64,000 nt of DNA, taken from positions 1,702-65,701 of the forward strand of contig CALMJU010000045.1 of assembly GCA_937864465.1 (NCBI GenBank), written 5' to 3'. The translations under genes and the position numbers were made by a program. This DNA comes from an uncultured Acidobacteriota bacterium (GTDB taxonomy: Bacteria; Acidobacteriota; Polarisedimenticolia; Polarisedimenticolales; JAIQFR01). Below the pieces are notes generated by a model. It ran no database searches, was not told where the DNA came from, and saw nothing but the letters and a program-made list of their open reading frames with translations. Positions 4,998 through 59,304 of this stretch are shown here, in pieces (the first letter of the stretch is position 1; each line of letters starts with the position of its first letter).

Positions 4998-6185
4998 TCA
5001 GACGGTCGCGTAGGCCCTCGCGACCTCGCGCCACGCCGGGAGCGAGGCCTCGATCGCCCGATCGGACGAGGTCAGGGAGATCCGGAAGTGCCCGGAGCGC
5101 CCGAAGCCGACGCCGGGGACGATCAGGATGTTCTTCCCGAGGCAGACCTTGGCGAATTTCCGGTCGTCCGGCTCGAGCGACCTCGGAAAGAGGTAGAACG
5201 CCCCGCGCGGCTTCACGCACTCGAAGCCGAGCTCCGTGAGCGCGCCGTGCAGGACGTCGCGGCGCCTCTGGTACACGGAGGGATCGATGCAGGCGCGCAG
5301 CACGTCGCGGATCGCGAGCTGCATGAGCCCCGGCGCGTTCACGAACCCGAGCACCCGGATGGCGAACGTCATCCCGGCCACCAGCGCCTCGGCGGAGTTC
5401 GCGGCGGGATGGACCGCCACGTGCCCGATGCGCTCGCCCGCGAGGCCGAGGTCCTTGCTGTGCGAGTAGACCGCGATCGAGCTCTCGTAGTGCCGGAATA
5501 CGTGGGAATACTGCGTGCCGTCGAAGAGGATCTTCTTGTACGGATCGTCGCTGACCAGGTAGATCGCGCGGCCGAGCTTCCGGGAGCGGTCCCGCAGGAG
5601 CCCGCCCAGCCGCGCCAGCACGGCCGCGTCGTACACGACGCCCGTCGGGTTGTTCGGGGAGTTGACGAAGACCGCCTTGGTTCGCGGACCGATCGCCGCC
5701 TCGAGGCGATCGAAGTCGATGCGGAACTGGCCGTCCGTCTCGACGACCCGCAGGACGCCCCCGTGGTTGTCGATGTAGAAGGCGTACTCCGGGAAGTACG
5801 GCGCGAAGACGACGACCTCGTCCCCCGGGTCGAGCAGCGCCTTCAGGACGACGTTCAGCCCGCCTCCCGCGCCGACCGCGAGGATCACGTGCTTCCCGCC
5901 GACCTCCACGCCCGATTCCTCGCGGACCCACCGGGCGACCGCCTCCCGGACCTCGGGGTACCCCGCGTTCGGCATATAGCGGTGCATCCCCGCCCGCGGC
6001 CGGACGACCAGATCCCGGAGGCTCTCGACGAACTCGGGGGGCGGCTCGAGGTCCGGGTTCCCCAGCGTGAAGTCGTGGATGTTGCCCGCCCCGACCTGGC
6101 CGGCGAGGCGCACGCCCTCCTCGAACATCTTCCGGATCCACGAGGCCTCCTCCATTTGGCGGGCGATCTTCGAGGAGATGGGCAT
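4998..6185 (-). CDS. pyridoxal-phosphate-dependent aminotransferase (class I, aspartate/aromatic type)
   Basis: ATG at 6185 with GGAGG 6 nt upstream, inside ORF 4998..6437. NSPNNPTG, YSHSKDLGLAGERIG (PLP-lysine region) and C-terminal FRISL motifs. Confidence 0.9.
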   Translation of the reverse strand: MPISSKIARQMEEASWIRKMFEEGVRLAGQVGAGNIHDFTLGNPDLEPPPEFVESLRDLVVRPRAGMHRYMPNAGYPEVREAVARWVREESGVEVGGKHVILAVGAGGGLNVVLKALLDPGDEVVVFAPYFPEYAFYIDNHGGVLRVVETDGQFRIDFDRLEAAIGPRTKAVFVNSPNNPTGVVYDAAVLARLGGLLRDRSRKLGRAIYLVSDDPYKKILFDGTQYSHVFRHYESSIAVYSHSKDLGLAGERIGHVAVHPAANSAEALVAGMTFAIRVLGFVNAPGLMQLAIRDVLRACIDPSVYQRRRDVLHGALTELGFECVKPRGAFYLFPRSLEPDDRKFAKVCLGKNILIVPGVGFGRSGHFRISLTSSDRAIEASLPAWREVARAYATV

Positions 6186-6367
6186 GAAGGGACCTCCGCG
6201 GAAACGCAGAGCGCGGACTATAGCACGGCCCCGGACGGTGCGAAAGCGGGGCGGCGCGCGCCAACCTCCCGAAATGGAGCCTCTTACCGGCGCTATGGTA
6301 TATTTCCCGCTTCGCCGCGCGCCGCGAGGCGCACGGAAGGTGCAGGGGCCGACCAAGGAGCGCTTCG

Positions 6368-8467
6368 ATGAAGGTCTTCGACACTCCCGACATCCGCAAC
6401 GTCGCCCTGATCGGGCACGGCGATTCGGGCAAGACATCGCTCGCCTCGGCGATGCTGTTCGTCGCGGGGGCCGTGAACCGCTTCGGCCGCGTGGACGAGG
6501 GGACGACGATCACGGACTTCGACGAGGAAGAGATCGAGCGGAAGATCTCGCTGCAGACGGCGCTCGCCCACCTCGAGTGGAAGGACCGGAAGGTCAATCT
6601 CCTCGACACGCCGGGATATGCGGCGTTCGTCGCCGACGCGAAGTCCGCCCTGGCCGTCGCGGACGCGGCGCTCCTCCTCGTCGAGGGGGTCGCCGGCGTG
6701 CAGGTGATCACTGAGCGGACCTTCAAGTTCTCCCAGGAGTACGGGCTCCCGGTCGTCTTCGTGATCAACAAGCTCGACCGCGAGCGCAGCTCCTTCGACC
6801 GGACCCTCGAGGCGATCCACGAACGCTTCGGCCGCACCGCCGTCCCCATCCAGATCCCGATCGGCGAGGAGTCCGGGTTCGAGGGGATCGTGGACCTCGT
6901 GACGATGCGAGCGCACGTCTACGCGAAGGACGGGTCGGGCAAGGGCTCCGAGGGGGACACCCCCCCCGCGCTCCTCGAGCGGGCGAGAGAGCTCCGCTCG
7001 AAGCTCGTCGAGATGGTCGCCGAGAGCGACGACTCGCTCATGGAGATCTTCTTCGAGAAGGGCGACCTCGAGGACGCGAAGCTCCGCGGGGGCCTGCGCA
7101 ACGCGGTCCTGGCCAGGAAGATCTTCCCCGTCGCGTGCGCCGCCGCCGTCCAGGGGATCGGCGCGTCGAGCCTGCTCGACCTCGCGGCGGACGTCCTCCC
7201 GGCCCCCGGCGGGCGAGGGAACGCCGTCGGGACGAAGCCCGGAGAGGCGACGGAGATCTCGCGCCCCGTCGCGGCGACGGAGCCGGTGTCGGCCTTCGTC
7301 TTCAAGACGATCGCCGACCCGTACGCCGGCCGCCTGTCGCTCTTCCGCGTGTGCACCGGGACCCTGAGGGGCGACTCCCCCGTCGTCAACGTGAAGAACG
7401 GGACGGCGGAGCGCCTGGGAACCGTCTCCGTCCTCCAGGGCAAGCAGCTCGTCCCGGTGCCGGAGCTCCGGGCCGGCGACCTCGGCGTCGTGGCGAAGCT
7501 CAGGGACACGCGCACGAACGACACGCTCGCCGATCCCGCGCATCCGGTCGAGTACCCGCCGATCGCCTTCCCCGCCCCGGCGATCTCCTTCGCGCTCGAG
7601 CCGAAGTCGAAGGGGGACGAGGAGAAGATCTCCTCCGCGCTGCTGCGCCTCACGGAGGAGGACCCGGTGCTGCGGGTCGGGCGAGACTCCCAGACGCACC
7701 AGATGCTGCTGTCCGGGAGCGGACAGGTGCACGTCGAGGTCGCCGTCGCGAAGATGCGGAAGAAGTTCGGCGTGGACGCGCTGCTGCGCCAGCCGAAGGT
7801 CCCGTACCTCGAGACGATCAAGAAGAAGGTCGGGCCGGTCCAGGGCCGCCACAAGAAGCAGACGGGGGGCCGGGGCCAGTTCGGCGACTGCTGGATCGAG
7901 ATCGAGCCGCTCCCCCGCGGCGCGGGGTTCGAGTTCGCGGACAAGATCTTCGGAGGGTCGATCCCGCAGAACTTCCGGCCGGCCGTGGAGAAGGGAATCG
8001 TCGAAGCCGCCGCCCGCGGCTGGCTCGCCGGGTGCCCGGTCGTCGACTTCCGCGTGACCCTGACGGACGGCTCGTACCACACGGTGGACTCGTCGGAGCT
8101 CGCGTTCAAGATCGCCGGATCGCTCGCGTTCAAGGCCGCGATGGAGGAGGCGAGGCCCACGATCCTCGAGCCGATCTACTCCGTCGAGATCACCGCCCCC
8201 GAGGAGTACATGGGGGACATCATGGGCGATCTCTCGTCGCGCCGCGGGAAGCCCCAGGGGATGGACTCGCAGGGGCACTACCAGGTGATCCGGGCGTCCG
8301 TCCCGCTCGCCGAGATGCTGACCTACGCGTCCACGCTGAAGTCCATCACGTCGGACCGCGGCACCTACACGATGGAGTTCGACCACTACGAGGAGGTTCC
8401 GGCCCACATCCAGGAGAAGATCATCGCCGAGGCATCGAAGACCAAGCAGGAAGAGGCGGAAAGGTGA
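6368..8467 (+). CDS. fusA: elongation factor G family GTPase (not in a str-operon context, possibly an EF-G paralog)
   Basis: ORF 6368..8467 with AAGGAG upstream. [13 protein letters not shown] and NKLD G-motifs. Full five-domain length of 699 aa. Confidence 0.85.
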
Positions 8468-8474
8468 GCTTCGC

Positions 8475-9803
8475 GTGGCGAGGGACTTCGTCTACGTCGA
8501 GGAGCTCGGGGAGCACGTCGGCGAGCGCGTGACCCTGAAGGGGTGGCTCAGCCGGAAGCGCTCCTCGGGAAAGGTCAAGTTCCTCGTGCTGCGGGACGGC
8601 ACGGGGCTCCTCCAGTGCGTCGCCTTCGTGCGAGACACGAGCGCCGAGCTGTTCGAGCGCTGCGACCGGATCCCCCTCGAGTCCTCGATCGCCGTCGCAG
8701 GCCGCGTCCGCCGCGACGACCGGGCCCCCGGAGGGTTCGAGCTCGGCATCGAGGACCTGCGCGTCCTCCACGAGGCGGCCGAGTTCCCGATCCAGCCGAA
8801 GGAGCACGGCGTAGAGTTCCTCTTCGACCACCGCCACCTCCACCTCCGCTCCCGGACCCCCCACGCGATCCTCCGCGTCCGCAGCGAGGTGGTCCGGGCG
8901 TGCCGCGACTTCTTCCACGAGCGGCGCTTCGTCCTGATCGACTCGCCCGTCCTGACGCCGGCGGCGTGCGAGGGCACGACGACGCTCTTCGAGACCGACT
9001 ACTTCGGAAGGAAGGCCTACCTCACGCAGTCGGGGCAGCTCTACCTCGAGCCCGCCTGCATGGCGTTCGGCCGCGTGTACTGCATGGGGCCGACCTTCCG
9101 CGCGGAGAAATCGAAGACCCGGCGCCACCTGACCGAGTTCTGGATGATCGAGCCAGAGGTGGCGTTCCTCGAGTTCCCCGGGCTCCTCGAGCTCGCCGAG
9201 GAGTTCGTCAGCTACGTCGTCGCGAGGGCCCTCGACGTCTGCCGGGAGGACCTGAAGGTTCTCGATCGCGACACGTCGAAGCTCGAATCGGTGCGGCCGC
9301 CCTTCCCGCGCCTCCCCTACGACGAGGCCGCGCGGCTCCTCACGACGCCGGAGTCCCAGGCGCGGATGGCCGCGGCGGGCGCCCCGCCTTTCGCCGCGGG
9401 GAACGACTTCGGCGCGTTCGACGAGACGCTCCTGACCGAGAGCGCCGACCGGCCGGTGATGGTGACCCACTGGCCCGCCGCGATCAAGGCGTTCTACATG
9501 CAGCCGGACGAGGCCGATCCGAGCCGCGCGCTGTGCGTCGACGTGCTCGCCCCCGAGGGGTACGGGGAGATCATCGGCGGGTCGGAGCGGATTCACGATC
9601 ACGACCTGCTGCTCGGCCGCATCCGCGAGCACGGCCTGCCGGTCGAGGCCTTCCAGTGGTACCTGGACATCCGGAAGTACGGGACGGTGCCGCATTCGGG
9701 CTTCGGGATGGGCGTCGAGCGGTGCGTGACCTGGATCTGCGGCGTGCCGCACCTCCGGGACGCGATCCCGTACCCTCGCCAGATCCACCGCCTCTACCCG
9801 TGA
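8475..9803 (+). CDS. asnS: asparagine--tRNA ligase
   Basis: ORF 8475..9803 (GTG start). N-terminal OB fold. Class II motifs FRAE and [26 protein letters not shown] is the AsnRS-type motif 3 region. Confidence 0.9.
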
Positions 9804-27569: not shown

Positions 27570-28883
27570 CTATCCCAACGCCGCCGCGGCCCGTTCGCCC
27601 GAGAGCGCGGCGCCCTCGAGCGTCGCCGGGAGACCGGTGTCGGTCCAGTCGCCGGCGAGCACCAGGTTCGGAGAGCCGGTCCCGGGGCCCGGCCTCGCGG
27701 CGAGGTTCTCCGGCGTGAAGCGGGGAGTCGCCCGGCGCTCCTTGAGGACGAGAGCGCCGACGACCCGAGCCCCGCGGGCGAGCGGCAGGAACCGGCGGAT
27801 CTCCGAGACCGCGAGGGCTACGATCTCGTCCCGCCCGCGCCCGGCGAGGCCGTCGGCGGCGCTGGTCACGAGGGCGAGCCGCTCGGGCCCGCCCGCCCCC
27901 CGCTCCCGCCCTCGGAAGACCCAGTGCACCGGGGAGCGGACGAGCCCCGCCATCTCGGGGGCGCCCGTCGGCCGGTCGAGGCGGAGGCGGACCGAGACGA
28001 TCGGCGATTCGCCGAGGTCCCGCCAGGCGGGAGCCGTCGGCGGGGCGGCCGAGGGCGGCACGAGCGCGCCCGCCTCCCGATGGGGCACGGCGAGCACGAG
28101 GGCGCCGGCCTCGTGACGCTCGCCGCTCCGGCAGCGCGCCGCGACGAACCGCCCTCTCCCGTCCAGCTCGATCGACTCCACCTTCCTGCGGCGCAGCACC
28201 TCTCCTCCCCGGCCGCGGAGGTGGATCTCCGCGGGGCCGGCGATCGCCGCGTCGAGACCGCGATCGGCGAACCCGATCCGCGAGCCCCCCTCCCCGGCGA
28301 GGAGGGCCCGCCGCAGGACCGAGGCGACGAGCCGCGCCGGCGCCGTCTCCGGGCTCAGGTTGACCGTGGCGAGCACGAGAGGGTCCCAGAGCGCCTCCCG
28401 GGCCGCGGCGTCCTGGCCGTGCCGTGAGAGCCACGCGGCGGCGCTCGACCCGTCGAGGGCCGCGCACTCCTCCCTCGCCTCGCGGAGCGCCGCGCCCGCC
28501 CCCGGGACCGCGCGAAGCGGGAAGCCGCGGAGCCGCACGAGGCCGGAGAGGAGCCCCGCGCGGCCGGGCATCTCCTCCGGACGGAACGCCGTCCTCCCGC
28601 CTCCCTCGCGCAGCAGGACCACCTCCGCTCGCGGCTGGAACCTGAGGGCGTCCGCTCCCCCGGTCCTGCGGGCCATCCGGAGAAAGCTTTCGTAGCAGGC
28701 CATCACGAGGTGCCGGCCGTTGTCCTCGACCTCTCCGGTCCGGGGATCGGTCCAGGATCGGGCGCGGCCCCCCAGGACGGCCCTCGCCTCCAGGAGCCGC
28801 ACGCGCGCTCCGCGCTCGGCGAGCGCGGTCGCCGCGGACAGCCCCGCGCACCCCCCGCCGACGACGAGCACGTCCGGTCTCAA
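27570..28883 (-). CDS. hpnE: hydroxysqualene dehydroxylase (FAD-dependent, phytoene-desaturase family)
   Basis: ORF 27570..28883, TTG start (TTGA overlap with hpnD stop). VLVVGGGCAGLSAA dinucleotide fold. Third gene of an hpnC-hpnD-hpnE arrangement. Confidence 0.8.
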   Translation of the reverse strand: MRPDVLVVGGGCAGLSAATALAERGARVRLLEARAVLGGRARSWTDPRTGEVEDNGRHLVMACYESFLRMARRTGGADALRFQPRAEVVLLREGGGRTAFRPEEMPGRAGLLSGLVRLRGFPLRAVPGAGAALREAREECAALDGSSAAAWLSRHGQDAAAREALWDPLVLATVNLSPETAPARLVASVLRRALLAGEGGSRIGFADRGLDAAIAGPAEIHLRGRGGEVLRRRKVESIELDGRGRFVAARCRSGERHEAGALVLAVPHREAGALVPPSAAPPTAPAWRDLGESPIVSVRLRLDRPTGAPEMAGLVRSPVHWVFRGRERGAGGPERLALVTSAADGLAGRGRDEIVALAVSEIRRFLPLARGARVVGALVLKERRATPRFTPENLAARPGPGTGSPNLVLAGDWTDTGLPATLEGAALSGERAAAALG

Positions 28884-29764
28884 GGCGCCCGTCCCACTCT
28901 GCGGGCCACCGCCTCGCGGAGGACGACGCCGAGCGCGATCGCGGCGCGGCGCGGTCTCGAGAGGCGGGGAGCGCGGTCGAGAACGCGGGATCCCGCGCGC
29001 TCGACCTTGCGGAGCAGCGCGCGGTACACGGCGGCCATGATCTCCCCGGCCAAGGCGCGGCGCCTCTCCCCGGCCGGGAGCGCCGCGCGCGCCTCTTCGA
29101 ACCGGGCGCGCGCGTAGGCCGCCTGCTCCCGGATCGCGCGGTCGAGCCGCCGCCTCGATGCCGCATCGCCGCGCCGCAGGGCCTCGCGGTCAAGATCGTG
29201 GCGCGCCAGGACCTCCTCGGGCAGGTACACGCGCCCGCGGCGGAGGTCCTCACCCACGTCCCGCAGGACGTTCGTCCACTGGAGCGCGAGGCCGAGCTGC
29301 TCCGCGTAGCGCTCGCACGCCGGGTCCTCGCACCCGAAGATCCGGATGCAGAGGGCGCCGACCGTCGAGGCGACCCGCAGGCAGTACTCGCGCAGGTCGC
29401 CGATCGTCCGGTAGCGGCGTCCCTCGAGGTCCCAGCGGACGCCCTCGAGCAGGTCGTCGAACGGCCGCCGGGGCAGGCCGAACGAGCGGATCGCGCGGCC
29501 CAGCCTCCGCGCATCCGCATCCCCCCGGGCGTCGCCGCCGCGAAACGCCTCGTCGAGACGGCGGCGCACCCGTTCGAGTCTCTCCCGCGCCTCGCCGGGG
29601 TCGCGGGCCTCGTCCACAGCATCGTCGGCGCTCCGGCAGAAGGAGTACACGGCCTCGATCGCCTCGCGCCGGTCCTCGGGCAGCACGCGGAACGCGACGA
29701 GGAAGCTGCTCGCCGGGCTCGCGGCCCGCCGGTCTCCGGAGGCGCCCGCGCGCGGCGCGGTCAC
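28880..29764 (-). CDS. hpnD: presqualene diphosphate synthase
   Basis: GTG at 29764 (GTGA overlap with hpnC stop) inside ORF 28880..30403. SSFLVAFRVLPEDRREAIEAVYSFCRSADDAVD and LQWTNVLRDVGEDLRRGRVYLP (squalene/phytoene synthase Asp-rich motifs). Confidence 0.85.
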   Translation of the reverse strand: MTAPRAGASGDRRAASPASSFLVAFRVLPEDRREAIEAVYSFCRSADDAVDEARDPGEARERLERVRRRLDEAFRGGDARGDADARRLGRAIRSFGLPRRPFDDLLEGVRWDLEGRRYRTIGDLREYCLRVASTVGALCIRIFGCEDPACERYAEQLGLALQWTNVLRDVGEDLRRGRVYLPEEVLARHDLDREALRRGDAASRRRLDRAIREQAAYARARFEEARAALPAGERRRALAGEIMAAVYRALLRKVERAGSRVLDRAPRLSRPRRAAIALGVVLREAVARRVGRAP

Positions 29765-30651
29765 GGGGCGGACCACCGCCGGGGCAGGAGGGCTCTGCCG
29801 ACGAGGCGCGCCTTGTCGAGCCCGCCGAGGCTGGGACGCCGCCGGAAGACGTCGTAGTCCGCCGCCTCGATCCGGTCGAGGATGCGGTTCCCGCCGAGCC
29901 ACACGAGCCGGATCTCGAGCGCCAGCCGGCCGCGGAGCATCCCGAGGAGCGGCCGCCCGTCCTCGAAGCTCCGCCGCGTCCGCCCCACGATCTCCGCGAG
30001 GAGCGCCCGGAAGCCGTCGTGGAGCCTCTCGCCCCGGAGGTCCTCCTCCGAGACCCCGAACCTGCGCCGGTCCTCCTCCGGGAGATAGATGCGCCCGCGC
30101 CCGTAGTCGGGCGCGACGTCCTGCCAGAAGTTCGTCAGCTGGAGCGCCGTGCAGATCGAGTCCGACCGGGCGGCCCTGTCCTCGTCGCGATGTCCGAAGA
30201 GGAGAAGGACGAGGCGACCCACGGGGTTGGCCGACCGCCGGCAGTAGTCGAGAAGGTCGTCCCACCGGAGGTAGGACCGCACGCGGCAGTCCTGCCGGAA
30301 CGCGTCGAGGAGGTCGCGAAACGGCTCGAGCGGCAGATCGAAGCGGCGCAGCGTCTCTCCGAGGGCGACGAAGACCGGGTGGTCCGCCCTTCCCCCCGCG
30401 CACGCCTCGAGGCGCTCCTCCCAGCGGTCCAGCTCCTCGAGGCGCCGCCCCTCGTGCGACGGCTCGTCCGCGAAGTCGTCGGCGGCTCGGGCGAAGGCGT
30501 AGATCGCGCAGACGTGAGGCCGGATCGAGCGGGGCACCGCCCTCGACGCCACGGGGAAGTTCTCGTAGCGGGCCCTCGCCAGAGCCTCGCAGTACGCGTA
30601 GGACTCCTCCACGCTCCAGCGCACGGGATCGGGGACGGCCGGCTCCTCCAC
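29761..30651 (-). CDS. hpnC: hydroxysqualene synthase
   Basis: ORF 29761..30651 (GTG start). YENFPVAS, YAFARAADDFADE, LQLTNFWQDVAPDYGRGRIYLP. Confidence 0.85.
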   Translation of the reverse strand: MEEPAVPDPVRWSVEESYAYCEALARARYENFPVASRAVPRSIRPHVCAIYAFARAADDFADEPSHEGRRLEELDRWEERLEACAGGRADHPVFVALGETLRRFDLPLEPFRDLLDAFRQDCRVRSYLRWDDLLDYCRRSANPVGRLVLLLFGHRDEDRAARSDSICTALQLTNFWQDVAPDYGRGRIYLPEEDRRRFGVSEEDLRGERLHDGFRALLAEIVGRTRRSFEDGRPLLGMLRGRLALEIRLVWLGGNRILDRIEAADYDVFRRRPSLGGLDKARLVGRALLPRRWSAP

Positions 30652-30660
30652 CGGCCCGCC

Positions 30661-40555: not shown

Positions 40556-42274
40556 ATGCCGGAACGCGTGACCCACGATGTCCTCATCCTGGGAGCGGGA
40601 TTGGCCGGGCTCCGCGCCGCCGTGGAGATCTCCCGAAGGCTCGACGGCAAGGTCGACATCGGCATCGTGTCCAAGGTGCAGCTCATGCGGGCCCACTCGG
40701 TCTGCGCCGAGGGGGGCACGGCGGCGGTGCTGCGCCCCGACGAGGGGGACTCCCTCGAGCTCCACGCGTGGGACACCGTGAAGGGCTCGGACTTCCTGGC
40801 CGACCAGGACGTCGTGCGCCGCTTCGTGGAGACGATCCCGAGCGAGATCCTCCTGCTCGACCACTGGGGGATCCCCTGGACCCGCGACGAGCGGGGCCGG
40901 ATCGCCCAGCGCCCCTTCGGAGGTCACTCGTACCCGAGGGCGACGCTGGCGGCGGACAAGACCGGCTTCTTCGAGATGCAGACTCTGTACGACACCCTGC
41001 TCCGGTACCGCTGCTTCACCCGGTACGACGAGCTCTTCATCACCGACATCCTGGCCGAGGACGGCCGGTTCTCGGCGCTGCTCGGGATCCACGCGCCGAG
41101 CGGCGAGACGGTGATCCTCCAGGCGAAGGCCCTGCTGATCGCCTCCGGCGGCGGCGGGACGCTCTACGGCTTCACGACGTACTCGCAGACCGTCACCGGC
41201 GACGGCATGGCGATGGCGTACCGGACCGGCCTCCCGCTCGAGGACATGGAGTTCCTCCAGTTCCACCCGACGGGGCTCGTCCCCTCGGGGATCCTCATGA
41301 CCGAGGCCTGCCGCGGCGAGGGCGGCTACCTGACGAACTCCAAGGGCGAGCGCTTCATGGAGCGCTACGCGAAGTCGAAGATGGAGCTGGCGCCGCGCGA
41401 CATGGTGTCGCGCGCCGAGACGACCGAGATCCTGGAAGGCCGGGGGATCGAGGGATCCGACGGCCTCGGCTGCCTGAACCTCGACCTGACCCACCTGGGA
41501 GCCGACCGGATCAACACGCGCCTGCCGCTCATCCGCGAGGTCTGCATCAAGTTCCTCGACCTCGATCCGATCCTCCGGCCGATCCCGATCCGGCCCGTCG
41601 CCCACTACTCCATGGGGGGCATCGAGACGGACATCGAGGGGGCCACGCGGATCCCGGGGATCTGGGCGGCGGGAGAAGCCGCCTGCGTCTCGCTGCACGG
41701 CGCGAACCGGCTGGGCTCGAACTCCACGGCCGAGTGCCTGGTCTGGGGCGGCATCGCGGGAGAGCGGATCGCCCGCGGGCTCGCCGGGGCGCTGCGCGCC
41801 CCCGCTCCGCCCTCGGCGGCGGCGCTCCGCGATGCGGAGGGGAGAAACGAGGCGATCCTCCGGCGCGAGGGGGACGAGAACCTGTACGACCTGCGGAGGG
41901 ATCTGCGCGCCGCCATGGACCGGAACGTCGGCGTGTTCCGCACCGGCGAGGGGCTCTCCGAGGCGCTCGCGACGATCCGGGACATCCGGGCGCGGAGCGC
42001 AAGAGCGCCCGTCCGGGACAAGGGGAAGCTCTACAACTCGAACCTCTTCCACGCCCTCGAGCTCGAGAACCTCGTCGACCTCGCCGAGATCACCGTCCTG
42101 GGGGCCCTCGCGAGGCAGGAGTCCCGTGGCGCCCACGCCCGCCGCGACTTCCCGAACCGGGACGACGAGCGATGGCTCAAGCACACGCTCGCCTGGAAGA
42201 CCGACTCCGGGCCGCGACTCGACTACAAGCCGGTGACCATCGACATGTGGAAGCCGGTGGAGCGGAAGTACTGA
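40556..42274 (+). CDS. sdhA: succinate dehydrogenase / fumarate reductase flavoprotein subunit
   Basis: ATG at 40556 with AAGGAGG upstream, inside ORF 40496..42274. DVLILGAGLAGLRAA, RAHSVCAEGG (FAD His), FHPTG, EACRGEGG, SRGAHAR. Confidence 0.95.
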   Translation: MPERVTHDVLILGAGLAGLRAAVEISRRLDGKVDIGIVSKVQLMRAHSVCAEGGTAAVLRPDEGDSLELHAWDTVKGSDFLADQDVVRRFVETIPSEILLLDHWGIPWTRDERGRIAQRPFGGHSYPRATLAADKTGFFEMQTLYDTLLRYRCFTRYDELFITDILAEDGRFSALLGIHAPSGETVILQAKALLIASGGGGTLYGFTTYSQTVTGDGMAMAYRTGLPLEDMEFLQFHPTGLVPSGILMTEACRGEGGYLTNSKGERFMERYAKSKMELAPRDMVSRAETTEILEGRGIEGSDGLGCLNLDLTHLGADRINTRLPLIREVCIKFLDLDPILRPIPIRPVAHYSMGGIETDIEGATRIPGIWAAGEAACVSLHGANRLGSNSTAECLVWGGIAGERIARGLAGALRAPAPPSAAALRDAEGRNEAILRREGDENLYDLRRDLRAAMDRNVGVFRTGEGLSEALATIRDIRARSARAPVRDKGKLYNSNLFHALELENLVDLAEITVLGALARQESRGAHARRDFPNRDDERWLKHTLAWKTDSGPRLDYKPVTIDMWKPVERKY

Positions 42275-45351: not shown

Positions 45352-45768
45352 CCGGGCCCGATTTGCGCGGAAGGGAGGGGGGACTCCTCCACGCTCGAAC
45401 CCGGCTCATCGTGCCGGCGCGGCGGCCTTGGGGGAACCGCCGTCCGATCAGCACCCTTACTGTACGACCTTCCGCGCGTTTCGCCGCGGCATGCGGGCGT
45501 TTTCAGCGGACGCCGCGACCGCAGCCCGATACCGCCCGGGAGCCGGCGGGAAATGGGCGGTGTCGCGGCGACCGCGAGCGGACGCGTCCCGCGTCGGAGA
45601 AACGCGGGGGATGTTGTATCCTCATCCTCGCGACGATCCTGTCTCGGGAAAGGAGGCGCGATGGCGGATCAACCGCAGGGCTGCGCGCGCGTGACCGGGA
45701 CCGTCGCCGGCGAGAAGCCGGCCGGCGGCCCGCCTCCGGATCGACCGCTGGAGACGAGGGGGACGACC

Positions 45769-46377
45769 ATGACGGCACGTGTCGGACAGAAGGCGCCGGA
45801 CTTCACGGCTCCGGCCTACCACAAGGGCGGCTTCACGAGCGTGAAGCTCTCGGACTTCGCGGGGAAATGGCTGCTCCTGTGCTTCTACCCCGGCGACTTC
45901 ACCTTCGTCTGAGCGACGGAAGTGTCGGCGGTCGCCGACAAGTACTCCGAGCTCCAGAAGCTGGGCGTCGAGGTCCTCTCCGTCAGCGTGGACAGCCACT
46001 TCGTGCACAAGATGTGGAACGACCACGAGCTCTCCCGGATGGTCGAGGGCGGGGTCCCGTTCCCCATGGTCTCGGACCAGGCCGGGAACGTCGGGCGCGC
46101 GTACGGCGTCTGGGACGAGAACCAGGGGATCGAGCTGCGCGGCCGCTTCCTGATCGACCCCGACGGCGTGATCCAGGCCATGGAGGTGCTCACGCCGCCG
46201 GTCGGAAGGAGGCTGGCCGAGACGGTGCGCCAGATCCACGCCTTCCAGCACGTCCGCAGGTCGAAGGGGACCGAGGCGACGCCGGCCGGCTGGGAGCCGG
46301 GGCAACCGACGCTGAAGCCGGGCCCCGCGCTCGTCGGCAAGGTCTGGGAGGTCTGGAAGCCGGGCGCGGAGAAGTAG
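45769..46377 (+). CDS. peroxiredoxin (AhpC/2-Cys-Prx fold) with in-frame UGA at the peroxidatic position; predicted selenocysteine peroxiredoxin (PrxU-like)
   Basis: ORF-track pieces 45553..45912 and 45922..46377 are in the same frame. The joined product reads ..[15 protein letters not shown]-[TGA 45910..45912][21 protein letters not shown].., which aligns with the AhpC [9 protein letters not shown] active site. ATG at 45769 gives the usual [13 protein letters not shown]-terminus (alternative ATG at 45661). SECIS-like hairpin lies downstream. Confidence 0.75.
45924..45939 (+). promoter_or_regulatory. candidate bacterial SECIS hairpin
   Basis: GUCGGC-GGUC-GCCGAC, a 6-bp stem (7 with the flanking U-A). 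It starts exactly 11 nt after the UGA. The apical loop GGUC is the same loop sequence and spacing I recall for the E. coli fdhF SECIS. Confidence 0.6.
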
Positions 46378-46411
46378 CGGCGGGAGCGGAAGCGAGATCC
46401 GGGAGGAAGTG

Positions 46412-47290
46412 ATGATCGCGACGGTCGGCCTCCTCGGCCGGCGCCGGTGGGCGGGTGCCGTCCTGCTGGTCGCTGTGCTCTCCCCCGCGGTCGCCGCGGA
46501 ATCGCGGCAACCCGAGGAATCCTGGAAGAAGACGACGCGGCGGTGGACCGAGACGGTCGAGCCCGGCCGGCGGCTGCTGCTCGTCAACCCCCACGGCGAC
46601 GTCTACGCACGGTTCGGGGGGTACGAGAACCAGGTGGAGTTCGTGGCGACGGTCCAGCGGATCGAGACGAGCCAGCCGGAGCTGGGCATCCGCTTCGCGA
46701 AGGTCGAAGAAGGCCTCGACGCGATCGTGGCGCCCGAGGCTCCGTCCGATCCGGCGGCCCCGCCCGTCTCCGGGACCGAGAGCACCCGCGACCGCATGGA
46801 CCTGGCCGTCTTCGTGCCCAAGGGAGTGGCGCTCCGCGTCCGCACCGCGGAAGGGGGCATGGAGATCAAGGGACTGCAGAGCGATCTCGACGCGGAGTCG
46901 GAGAAGGGCGAGATCCGGATCTCCAAGGTCCGAGGGCGCGTCCAGGCCCGGAGCGAGCGGGGACAGATCGTCGCGATGCTGGAGACCGGGGTCACGAAGG
47001 AGCGCCAGGAGTTCTCCACGCGGACCGGGGACATCGCCGTTCATCTCTGGGAGGACGCGAACGCCGACGTCCGGATGGCGACGTCGGGTCAGATCGGCAC
47101 CGACTTCTCCCTGCAGGTGGAGCGCCGCCGCTTCGAGGAGCCGGGGAAGCTCGCGCTCGCCGTCGTCGGGAAAGGCGGGCCGGAGATCTCCCTCGTCAGC
47201 AAGCGCGGGAACCTCCGCCTACTCTGGATGCCCCGGCACTTCAAGCGGGACGCCGAGGAGAAGCCCCCCGAGGGCGCGCCCGCGAGGTGA
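46412..47290 (+). CDS. secreted beta-strand-repeat protein (DUF4097/putative-adhesin-like; tentative)
   Basis: ORF 46409..47290. I prefer ATG at 46412, 5 nt after GGAGG. Signal peptide MIATVGLLGRRRWAGAVLLVAVLSPAVAAE. Repeated short beta-like segments (G.I.I..V.G.V.A.S..G.I). Confidence 0.6.
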   Translation: MIATVGLLGRRRWAGAVLLVAVLSPAVAAESRQPEESWKKTTRRWTETVEPGRRLLLVNPHGDVYARFGGYENQVEFVATVQRIETSQPELGIRFAKVEEGLDAIVAPEAPSDPAAPPVSGTESTRDRMDLAVFVPKGVALRVRTAEGGMEIKGLQSDLDAESEKGEIRISKVRGRVQARSERGQIVAMLETGVTKERQEFSTRTGDIAVHLWEDANADVRMATSGQIGTDFSLQVERRRFEEPGKLALAVVGKGGPEISLVSKRGNLRLLWMPRHFKRDAEEKPPEGAPAR

Positions 47291-58746: not shown

Positions 58747-59304
58747 TCACGGCGCCGAGCCGCCGCCCTCCGCCGCGGCCGCGAGCAGCTCCTCGACAGC
58801 GGCCCGGAGATCGACGATCGGGCCGTCGTTCCGCAGCACGCGATCCGCGAGCCGGAACGTCTCCAGGAGCTGTTGCGCGTCGGGATCCCGCGAGTTCTCC
58901 TGCCGCTCCCGCCGGCGGAGCTCCCGGAGGGTTTGCGGATCCCCCGGCCGGCTCCTGCGGAGCAGCCTCTCGAGCCGGACCTCCTCGGGAGCGTCCACCG
59001 CGATCAGGAAGAACCCCTTCGCGCGGCGCAGCACCGCGACCTCCGCGGGATTCCGGATCGAGTCCACGACGTCGCGCCCGGTGAGCCTGGGAAGAACGCG
59101 CTCGGCGAGAACGCCAGCGCCCCACTGCCTGCGCAGATCGTTCCCGATGCGGATCAGGTGCTCGCGCTCCGTCCCGAGCCCCCGTGCGACCGCCTCCTCG
59201 CGCACGATGTCGGAGAGCGAGTGAACTCGGAACCCCCGGGACGCGAGGAAGGACGCGACCTCCCCTTTCCCGGCCGCGTTCGGGCCCGTCAGTCCGATCA
59301 GCAT
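58747..59304 (-). CDS. P-loop nucleotide kinase-like protein (dephospho-CoA kinase / dNMP kinase-like)
   Basis: ORF 58747..59304. LIGLTGPNAAGKGEV Walker A, 185 aa. Substrate not inferable. Confidence 0.6.
   Translation of the reverse strand: MLIGLTGPNAAGKGEVASFLASRGFRVHSLSDIVREEAVARGLGTEREHLIRIGNDLRRQWGAGVLAERVLPRLTGRDVVDSIRNPAEVAVLRRAKGFFLIAVDAPEEVRLERLLRRSRPGDPQTLRELRRRERQENSRDPDAQQLLETFRLADRVLRNDGPIVDLRAAVEELLAAAAEGGGSAP

Follow-up and report, generated by a model that had tools for sequence, protein, structure and literature searches.

An intact prxU gene for a probable selenocysteine peroxiredoxin, divided between two public fragments in an uncultured high-GC bacterium

Within the 64-kb stretch of bacterial DNA analysed here as a whole (the window), the segment 45661..46377 very probably constitutes one intact prxU gene, whose product is predicted from sequence comparison to be a 238-residue peroxiredoxin (Prx) of the AhpC/Prx1 type with selenocysteine (Sec) U84, encoded by UGA, as the peroxidatic residue. 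Sec peroxiredoxins with a SECIS hairpin have been textbook matter since 2001, and the window gene is an additional and publicly mis-annotated PrxU in a family that is itself already known. This family counted 12 genes in a 2006 genome set and is present in every bacterial selenoproteome survey (PMC1794560). As far as the account of Sohling et al. (2001) given in PMC13188914 goes, the Sec-containing Prx has been verified by experiment as a family of bacterial selenoproteins, and its members carry the motif TxxU (PMC1088965; PMC13188914).

The first-pass annotation of this DNA had described two ORFs, 45553..45912 and 45922..46377, lying in one reading frame and parted by a TGA and three codons. 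The sequence bears this out, the gap being made of TGA 45910-45912 followed by GCG ACG GAA, and the read-through protein given at the time is matched letter for letter on retranslation. The left boundary then proposed, 45769, is however a Met inside the gene: upstream of it the frame stays open, and the conserved start is the ATG at 45661, 108 nt further upstream, which adds an N-terminal arm of 36 residues. The Shine-Dalgarno-like AAGGAGG preceding this start is likewise found in a 98%-identical strain, designated L001. For comparison, a genome scan with one genome per species was used and the best 80 of 596 confirmed relatives were taken, which together with the window and L001 form a comparative set of 82 loci. 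For most of these best 80 of 596 relatives, tblastn matches span residues 1-238 of the query. Because the arm is conserved and is covered by the NCBIfam model for PrxU, the coding sequence is assigned the full extent given in Table 1. Codon usage matches that of the host, with a GC3 of 0.98 downstream of the TGA in a genome of 72% GC. Gene callers nevertheless break the gene into pieces of 83/119 aa and 151 aa; in the public record it stands split and truncated, the 151-aa piece being P0009, and the two public fragments (the 83-aa piece and P0009) should be annotated as one selenoprotein of 238 residues.

Table 1. Features of the prxU locus, in window coordinates
Feature	Position	Strand	Remarks
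Shine-Dalgarno-like AAGGAGG	45650..45656	+	4 nt before start codon; read from sequence
prxU, full coding sequence	45661..46377	+	238 codons including that for the probable UGA-encoded Sec84; stop TAG 46375-46377
Conserved N-terminal arm	45661..45768	+	36 aa, motif G-C-A-R-V-T-G; Cys8 codon 45682-45684
Cys74 codon (C-F-Y-P-G-D)	45880..45882	+	ten residues before Sec; alignment conservation
UGA, probable Sec codon (U84)	45910..45912	+	peroxidatic position of P-x-x-x-T-x-x-U; homologous TGA in relatives; 1we0 alignment
Bacterial SECIS hairpin	45923..45940	+	stem 45923-45929 / 45934-45940; loop GGUC 45930-45933; minimum-free-energy fold
Thr207 at the usual C-terminal resolving-Cys position (E-A-T-P-A-G-W)	46279..46281	+	translation

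Regarding family identity, the product matches the NCBIfam equivalog NF040737 (peroxi_PrxU, "thioredoxin-dependent peroxiredoxin") with 388.5 bits (cutoff 270), from position 2 to position 231 of the 233-position model; when the N-terminal arm is left off, the score falls to 381.9 bits and the match to model positions 35-231. With Pfam, the domains AhpC-TSA (E = 5e-41) and 1-cysPrx_C are retrieved. The AhpC equivalog TIGR03137 reaches 198.5-199.3 bits, which is below its cutoff of 272. As the gene thus scores above the cutoff of NF040737 and below that of TIGR03137, it is assigned to the curated PrxU family and not to canonical AhpC. The score for Prx-SUH (NF045827) is only 21 bits, for a cutoff of 298. 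The solved AhpC structure 1we0 (FYPADFSFVCPTELEDV) aligns colinearly with residues 41-228 (E = 5.5e-46) and, as had been proposed from the letters alone, the TGA falls on its peroxidatic Cys; in the window protein the active-site motif reads P77-G-D-F-T81-F-V-U84.

The UGA codon is conserved well beyond the window. A TGA stands at the homologous codon in 82/82 genomic copies of the comparative set (best 80 of 596 relatives, window and L001), the frames being otherwise intact and devoid of other stops or frameshifts. Among the best 80 of 596 relatives, the carriers belong to Chloroflexota/Anaerolineae, Acidobacteriota, NC10, Desulfobacterota, KSB1, Calditrichota, Ignavibacteria, Neomarinimicrobiota, Zixibacteria, Spirochaetota, Synergistota, Planctomycetota, Nitrospirota, Actinomycetota and Pseudomonadota (Thauera, Thiobacillus, Thiohalophilus, Marinobacter). 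To the earlier question of whether orthologs carry TGA or TGC at this codon, all the best 80 of 596 species-level orthologs thus answer with TGA and not with TGC; as for decay in related strains, there is none in L001, where both TGA and hairpin are kept.

At the protein level, the residue found at the active site in the best 120 protein matches is W in 89, C in 23 and S in 1. This "W" is the protein collection's rendering of TGA, for which a standard-code translation gives "*"; it was verified as TGA in the DNA for three gene copies (L086-L088), encoding two of the proteins. Public proteins bearing such a "W", or stemming from split genes (P0009, P0060, P0036), make searches display Trp at the position of the catalytic Cys. 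Four Cys-form homologs have TGC or TGT at the codon along with a partly decayed hairpin. In two Cys-form genes, L083:360-1070 and L084:2001-2729 (TGT and TGC, respectively), 6/8 tested SECIS positions are still paired and the apical GU is kept, so that to judge from their sequences these two look like a recent Sec-to-Cys conversion.

Immediately downstream of the UGA, the hairpin GUCGGC-GGUC-GCCGAC previously pointed out at 45924..45939 is present and can be extended by one U-A pair (45923/45940), which brings the stem to 7 bp. Its apical G-U occupies 45931-45932, and the loop begins 17 nt after the UGA (spacer 45913-45929), which falls inside the range of 16-37 nt between UGA and apical loop given for bacterial SECIS elements (PMC10778597). 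The likeness to the SECIS of Escherichia coli fdhF lies in a hairpin within the ORF that starts some 10-11 nt after the UGA and in a GGUC apical loop of which the G-U is the conserved element; unlike the fdhF element, the window stem is a perfect 7 bp devoid of the bulged U of fdhF, and in PrxU a conserved lower helix was not detected by RNAalifold on the 82 sequences. An exposed G-U in the apical loop is the element recognised by SelB, as reportedly established by NMR work on fdhF and by Moorella SelB-SECIS structures (Fourmy, 2002; Yoshizawa, 2005).

The folding energy of the 71-nt region (z = -0.93) is ordinary for a genome of 72% GC, and as such a z is uninformative at this GC content, folding statistics were replaced by feature counting and covariation. 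A perfect stem of at least 7 bp, capped by a 4-nt loop that has GU at its centre and placed 13-35 nt past a TGA, occurs only at 45910 among the 762 TGAs on both strands of the window. The same TGA is also the only one in the window to interrupt a single coding frame, and an in-frame TGA scan found no further selenoprotein genes within the 64 kb. Two other TGAs flagged in the course of the scan, at 42272 and 30663, were rejected as Sec codons, each being the normal end of a gene whose next neighbour shares its frame.

The covariation analysis was performed on a gapless alignment of 57 nt around the TGA, comprising 82 sequences (best 80 of 596 relatives, window and L001). Paired cells amount to 94.8% in this set versus 83.4% in shuffles, and the covariation score is 0.333 versus 0.101 ± 0.010, a value of 0.333 being reached in 0/500 shuffles; when the partners are slid, the score lies at 0.045-0.116. 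The co-variation of the hairpin that the first-pass annotation had proposed to look for is thus strong. Pairs 27-36 and 24-39 each show all four Watson-Crick types, the former as GC55/AU15/UA6/CG4, with none broken, at the third positions of Ser and Ala codons, and the latter as GC36/AU15/UA11/CG7, maintained partly via Asp/Glu switches. Two-sided changes were counted at four pairs (71 cells), compensatory changes occurring at synonymous sites. Within the loop, the central bases G31 and U32 are invariant across the 82 sequences, and the outer pair 30-33 (GC69/AU11) shows no mismatch, both bases changing together (G-C to A-U) in 11 sequences. This covariation of the first and last loop bases suggests that they may form a closing pair around an exposed G-U. 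RNAalifold recovers only a 4-bp core; the longer stem was tested by explicit pair counts. Rfam gave no family, either for the entire window at the gathering thresholds or for 45850-46010 at E<=10, which says nothing against the hairpin. As it stands, the 82-sequence set (best 80 of 596 relatives, window and L001) provides a covariation-backed model of the PrxU SECIS, with an invariant apical GU and a switching closing pair.

Besides, prxU is linked to the Sec machinery in several of the genomes compared. The gene order in Thauera sp. WH-2 (L032) runs prxU (5013-5726), selA (5893-7305; TIGR00474, 591 bits), selB (7299-9257; TIGR00475, 423 bits) and tRNA-SeC (9312-9408), and L023, L028, L030, L031 and L048 likewise have selA immediately after prxU. 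ARAGORN, run on 81 flanks (~1.2 Mb), detected only four tRNA genes, three of which are tRNA-SeC; in L023, L031 and L032 these follow prxU at a distance of ~4 kb. A cluster prxU-selA-selB-tRNA(Sec) is observed in Pseudomonadota, namely Thauera, Thiohalophilus, Thiobacillus and Marinobacter. Within the 64-kb window, ARAGORN found 0 tRNA genes, tRNA(Sec) included; neither tblastn with the Thauera SelA and SelB nor the NCBIfam scan of ~40 ORFs found selA or selB, and selD was absent from the same NCBIfam scan, the sole screen applied to it. Sel genes are not to be expected in a sample of only 64 kb, and their absence here is uninformative about the Sec trait. The presence of prxU itself predicts a Sec-decoding trait in this uncultured high-GC bacterium.

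The same observations allow the competing readings of the TGA to be weighed. It could be the mark of a nonsense pseudogene, in which a former Cys codon, TGC or TGT, mutated to TGA in a dead or decaying gene, as the splitting into 83/119-aa and 151-aa fragments by the callers and the lack of Sec machinery in the window might suggest; such a mutation would nonetheless have to coincide with the very codon that is TGA in every copy of the set, across many phyla and in intact frames (best 80 of 596 relatives), and it fits neither with the GC3 maintained downstream of the TGA nor with a covarying SECIS at the correct distance, nor with a 98%-identical strain that keeps TGA, hairpin and frame. The probability of decay is consequently rated as negligible, and the contrary view already taken in the first-pass annotation, that of a functional, Sec-decoded gene, is strongly supported by the PrxU score, the 82/82 TGA codons, the covarying SECIS and the sel linkage. 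Hardly any credit can be given either to genetic codes 4 or 25, by which the UGA would stand for Trp or Gly, or to generic stop-codon read-through. The W written at the site in 89 of the best 120 database homologs, which would speak for Trp, is a rendering artefact of TGA; TGA serves as a normal stop in the window, as at the gene ends 42272 and 30663, the carriers among the best 80 of 596 relatives belong to standard-code phyla, a hairpin of the SelB type is conserved, and an enzyme with Trp or Gly as its peroxidatic residue would be catalytically dead.

A third reading accepts a genuine selenoprotein gene but supposes that, having for example been acquired horizontally, it is poorly decoded or not decoded at all in this host, with a truncated 83-residue product as the main outcome. 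The phylogeny of prxU does depart from taxonomy, the best matches among the best 80 of 596 relatives being Chloroflexota MAGs at 82% identity that share no synteny with the window, and the window is devoid of sel genes. The weight of the latter point is however reduced by the size of the sample, as noted above, and the codon usage of prxU is that of the host. Since the TGA and a perfect SECIS hairpin persist in two strains that have diverged by ~2%, this reading is considered very unlikely.

Under the preferred reading, that of a Sec-decoded prxU, the hairpin in the coding part of the mRNA would offer its apical G-U to SelB; this elongation factor would bring Sec-tRNA(Sec) to the UGA located 17 nt upstream of the loop, and translation would run on to the TAG at 46375. 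In the resulting enzyme, the selenolate would attack hydroperoxides, and a thiol system, possibly thioredoxin to go by the family name, would then resolve the oxidised Sec and return it to the reduced state.

How the oxidised Sec might be resolved leads to the cysteines of the protein. The first-pass annotation had noticed that E-A-T-P-A-G-W takes the place of the usual E-V-C-P-A-x-W motif and had deduced a one-Sec peroxiredoxin; the replacement is confirmed, but the one-Sec label was premature, as it overlooked the near-universal Cys8 and also C74. At the resolving-Cys position, Thr stands in 62 of the 82 loci (best 80 of 596 relatives, window and L001), Cys in 15 and Met in 4. Cys74 is invariant in one alignment and at least 90% conserved in two others, typical 2-Cys relatives having Y or L at this position. 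Cys8 belongs to the N-terminal arm, the motif of which, M-x5-6-G-C-A-R-[PV]-T-G-x-[VP]-[VL]-G-E, is found in 80-81/82 loci of the same set, so that the comparison points to a nearly universal N-terminal Cys arm in PrxU. The arm Cys precedes the Sec by 74-80 residues (mode 76), across a linker that is hypervariable in sequence and nearly constant in length. Across the 82 loci, the Cys of the arm is written TGC in 41 and TGT in 39, and four Gly, four Ala and six Arg codons are in use; from this free variation of synonymous codons it follows that the arm is translated and selected as protein. No solved structure matches it, the PDB alignments beginning around residue 27-41, and in an AlphaFold2 model of the Cys-form homolog P0005 the Prx domain has a pLDDT >90 and the arm 45-62. 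No description of the conserved N-terminal Cys arm was found in the searchable literature.

Because the usual C-terminal Cys is a Thr in the window protein, Cys8 is the leading candidate for the resolving residue. The distribution of the two cysteines suggests the same: among the best 120 protein matches, an arm with its Cys is present in 81, of which only 3 keep the C-terminal Cys, and six classical 2-Cys relatives within these 120 have the C-terminal Cys and no arm, the arm being also present in members of the Cys form that have no C-terminal Cys. If true, Cys8 would do the resolving in place of the C-terminal Cys that was lost. A simple story of Cys replacement is weakened by the 15 genomes holding both cysteines. 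These 15/82 loci (e.g. L023, L037, L042, L043 and L046) keep the Cys of E-x-C-P together with Sec and the N-terminal Cys, and the PrxU family comprises at least two cysteine layouts. That PrxU represents a distinct mechanistic subclass of AhpC/Prx1, in which C8, carried by a flexible arm of fixed length, would resolve U84 via a selenenylsulfide formed once peroxide has reacted, in place of a 1-Sec mechanism, can be advanced tentatively and with some doubt. Of note, the prxU of a low-GC lineage has, upstream and in divergent orientation, a gene for an 87-aa glutaredoxin (L087:939-1202 and L088:1784-2047); in those genomes a role as dedicated reductant is possible.

Compared with known systems, the window protein resembles most closely the PrxU of Eubacterium acidaminophilum (Sohling et al., 2001) and the NF040737 family, with which it shares the AhpC/Prx1-type fold, the Sec at T-x-x-U, the absence of the canonical C-terminal resolving Cys and a SECIS within the ORF right after the UGA; with NF040737 the match extends to the full length of the model, N-terminal arm included. 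The arm itself reads GCARVTG in the window and GCARPTG in the commoner PrxU version. While the host of the E. acidaminophilum enzyme is a clostridial amino-acid fermenter, that of the window is an uncultured bacterium with 72% GC. The protein described in 2001 is reportedly of about 203 aa, i.e. without the arm.

With typical 2-Cys AhpC/Prx1 enzymes (1we0, Salmonella AhpC, human PRDX1-4), the window protein has in common the domain and the block F-Y-P-x-D-F-T-F-V-[C/U]-P/A-T-E; it departs from them by Sec in place of Cys, by Thr in place of the C-terminal resolving Cys and by the additional Cys-bearing arm of 36 residues. Unlike 2-Cys AhpC genes, prxU has no adjacent ahpF in the window, its neighbours being NamZ-like on the upstream side and, on the downstream side, a weakly DUF4097-like ORF and SppA. 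Like the Prx-like thiol:disulfide oxidoreductases (UxxC) and Prx-SUH (CxxU), it belongs to the redoxin-fold bacterial selenoproteins (PMC13188914), from both of which it differs in motif and family.

The window is a stretch of bacterial chromosome, as indicated by housekeeping genes among its ORFs, which encode QueA, EF-G, AsnRS, RibF, Tmk, HolB, RlmD, IMPDH, SecA, HpnE/HpnC, RNase Y, TypA, SdhA-D, NamZ, SppA, DXS and NadA. The immediate neighbours of prxU (SdhA/B, NamZ, a 293-aa ORF, SppA and DXS) are common to L001 only, in a comparison with L001 and the best 80 of 596 relatives, hence the gene context says nothing about function. The 293-aa ORF, directly downstream of prxU at 46409-47290, has an N-terminal hydrophobic segment and a sub-threshold match to the DUF4097 "toastrack" (22.1 bits vs. 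22.9), and is common to the sister strain only. In L001 (ENA ERZ27275044, contig k141_33436), an intergenic insertion of ~3 kb (6634-9687) lies just upstream of prxU, at a place corresponding to window 45525-45607, where the window has no insertion; its 961-aa ORF (6780-9665) finds no counterpart in Pfam. On the minus strand of the window, a 185-aa ORF at 58747-59304 weakly resembles part of an anti-phage dCTP deaminase model (E = 1e-12), far below the cutoff. Also on the minus strand, two closely spaced hopanoid/squalene genes at 27570-30660, hpnE (345 bits) and hpnC (339 bits), may help the taxonomic placement of the organism.
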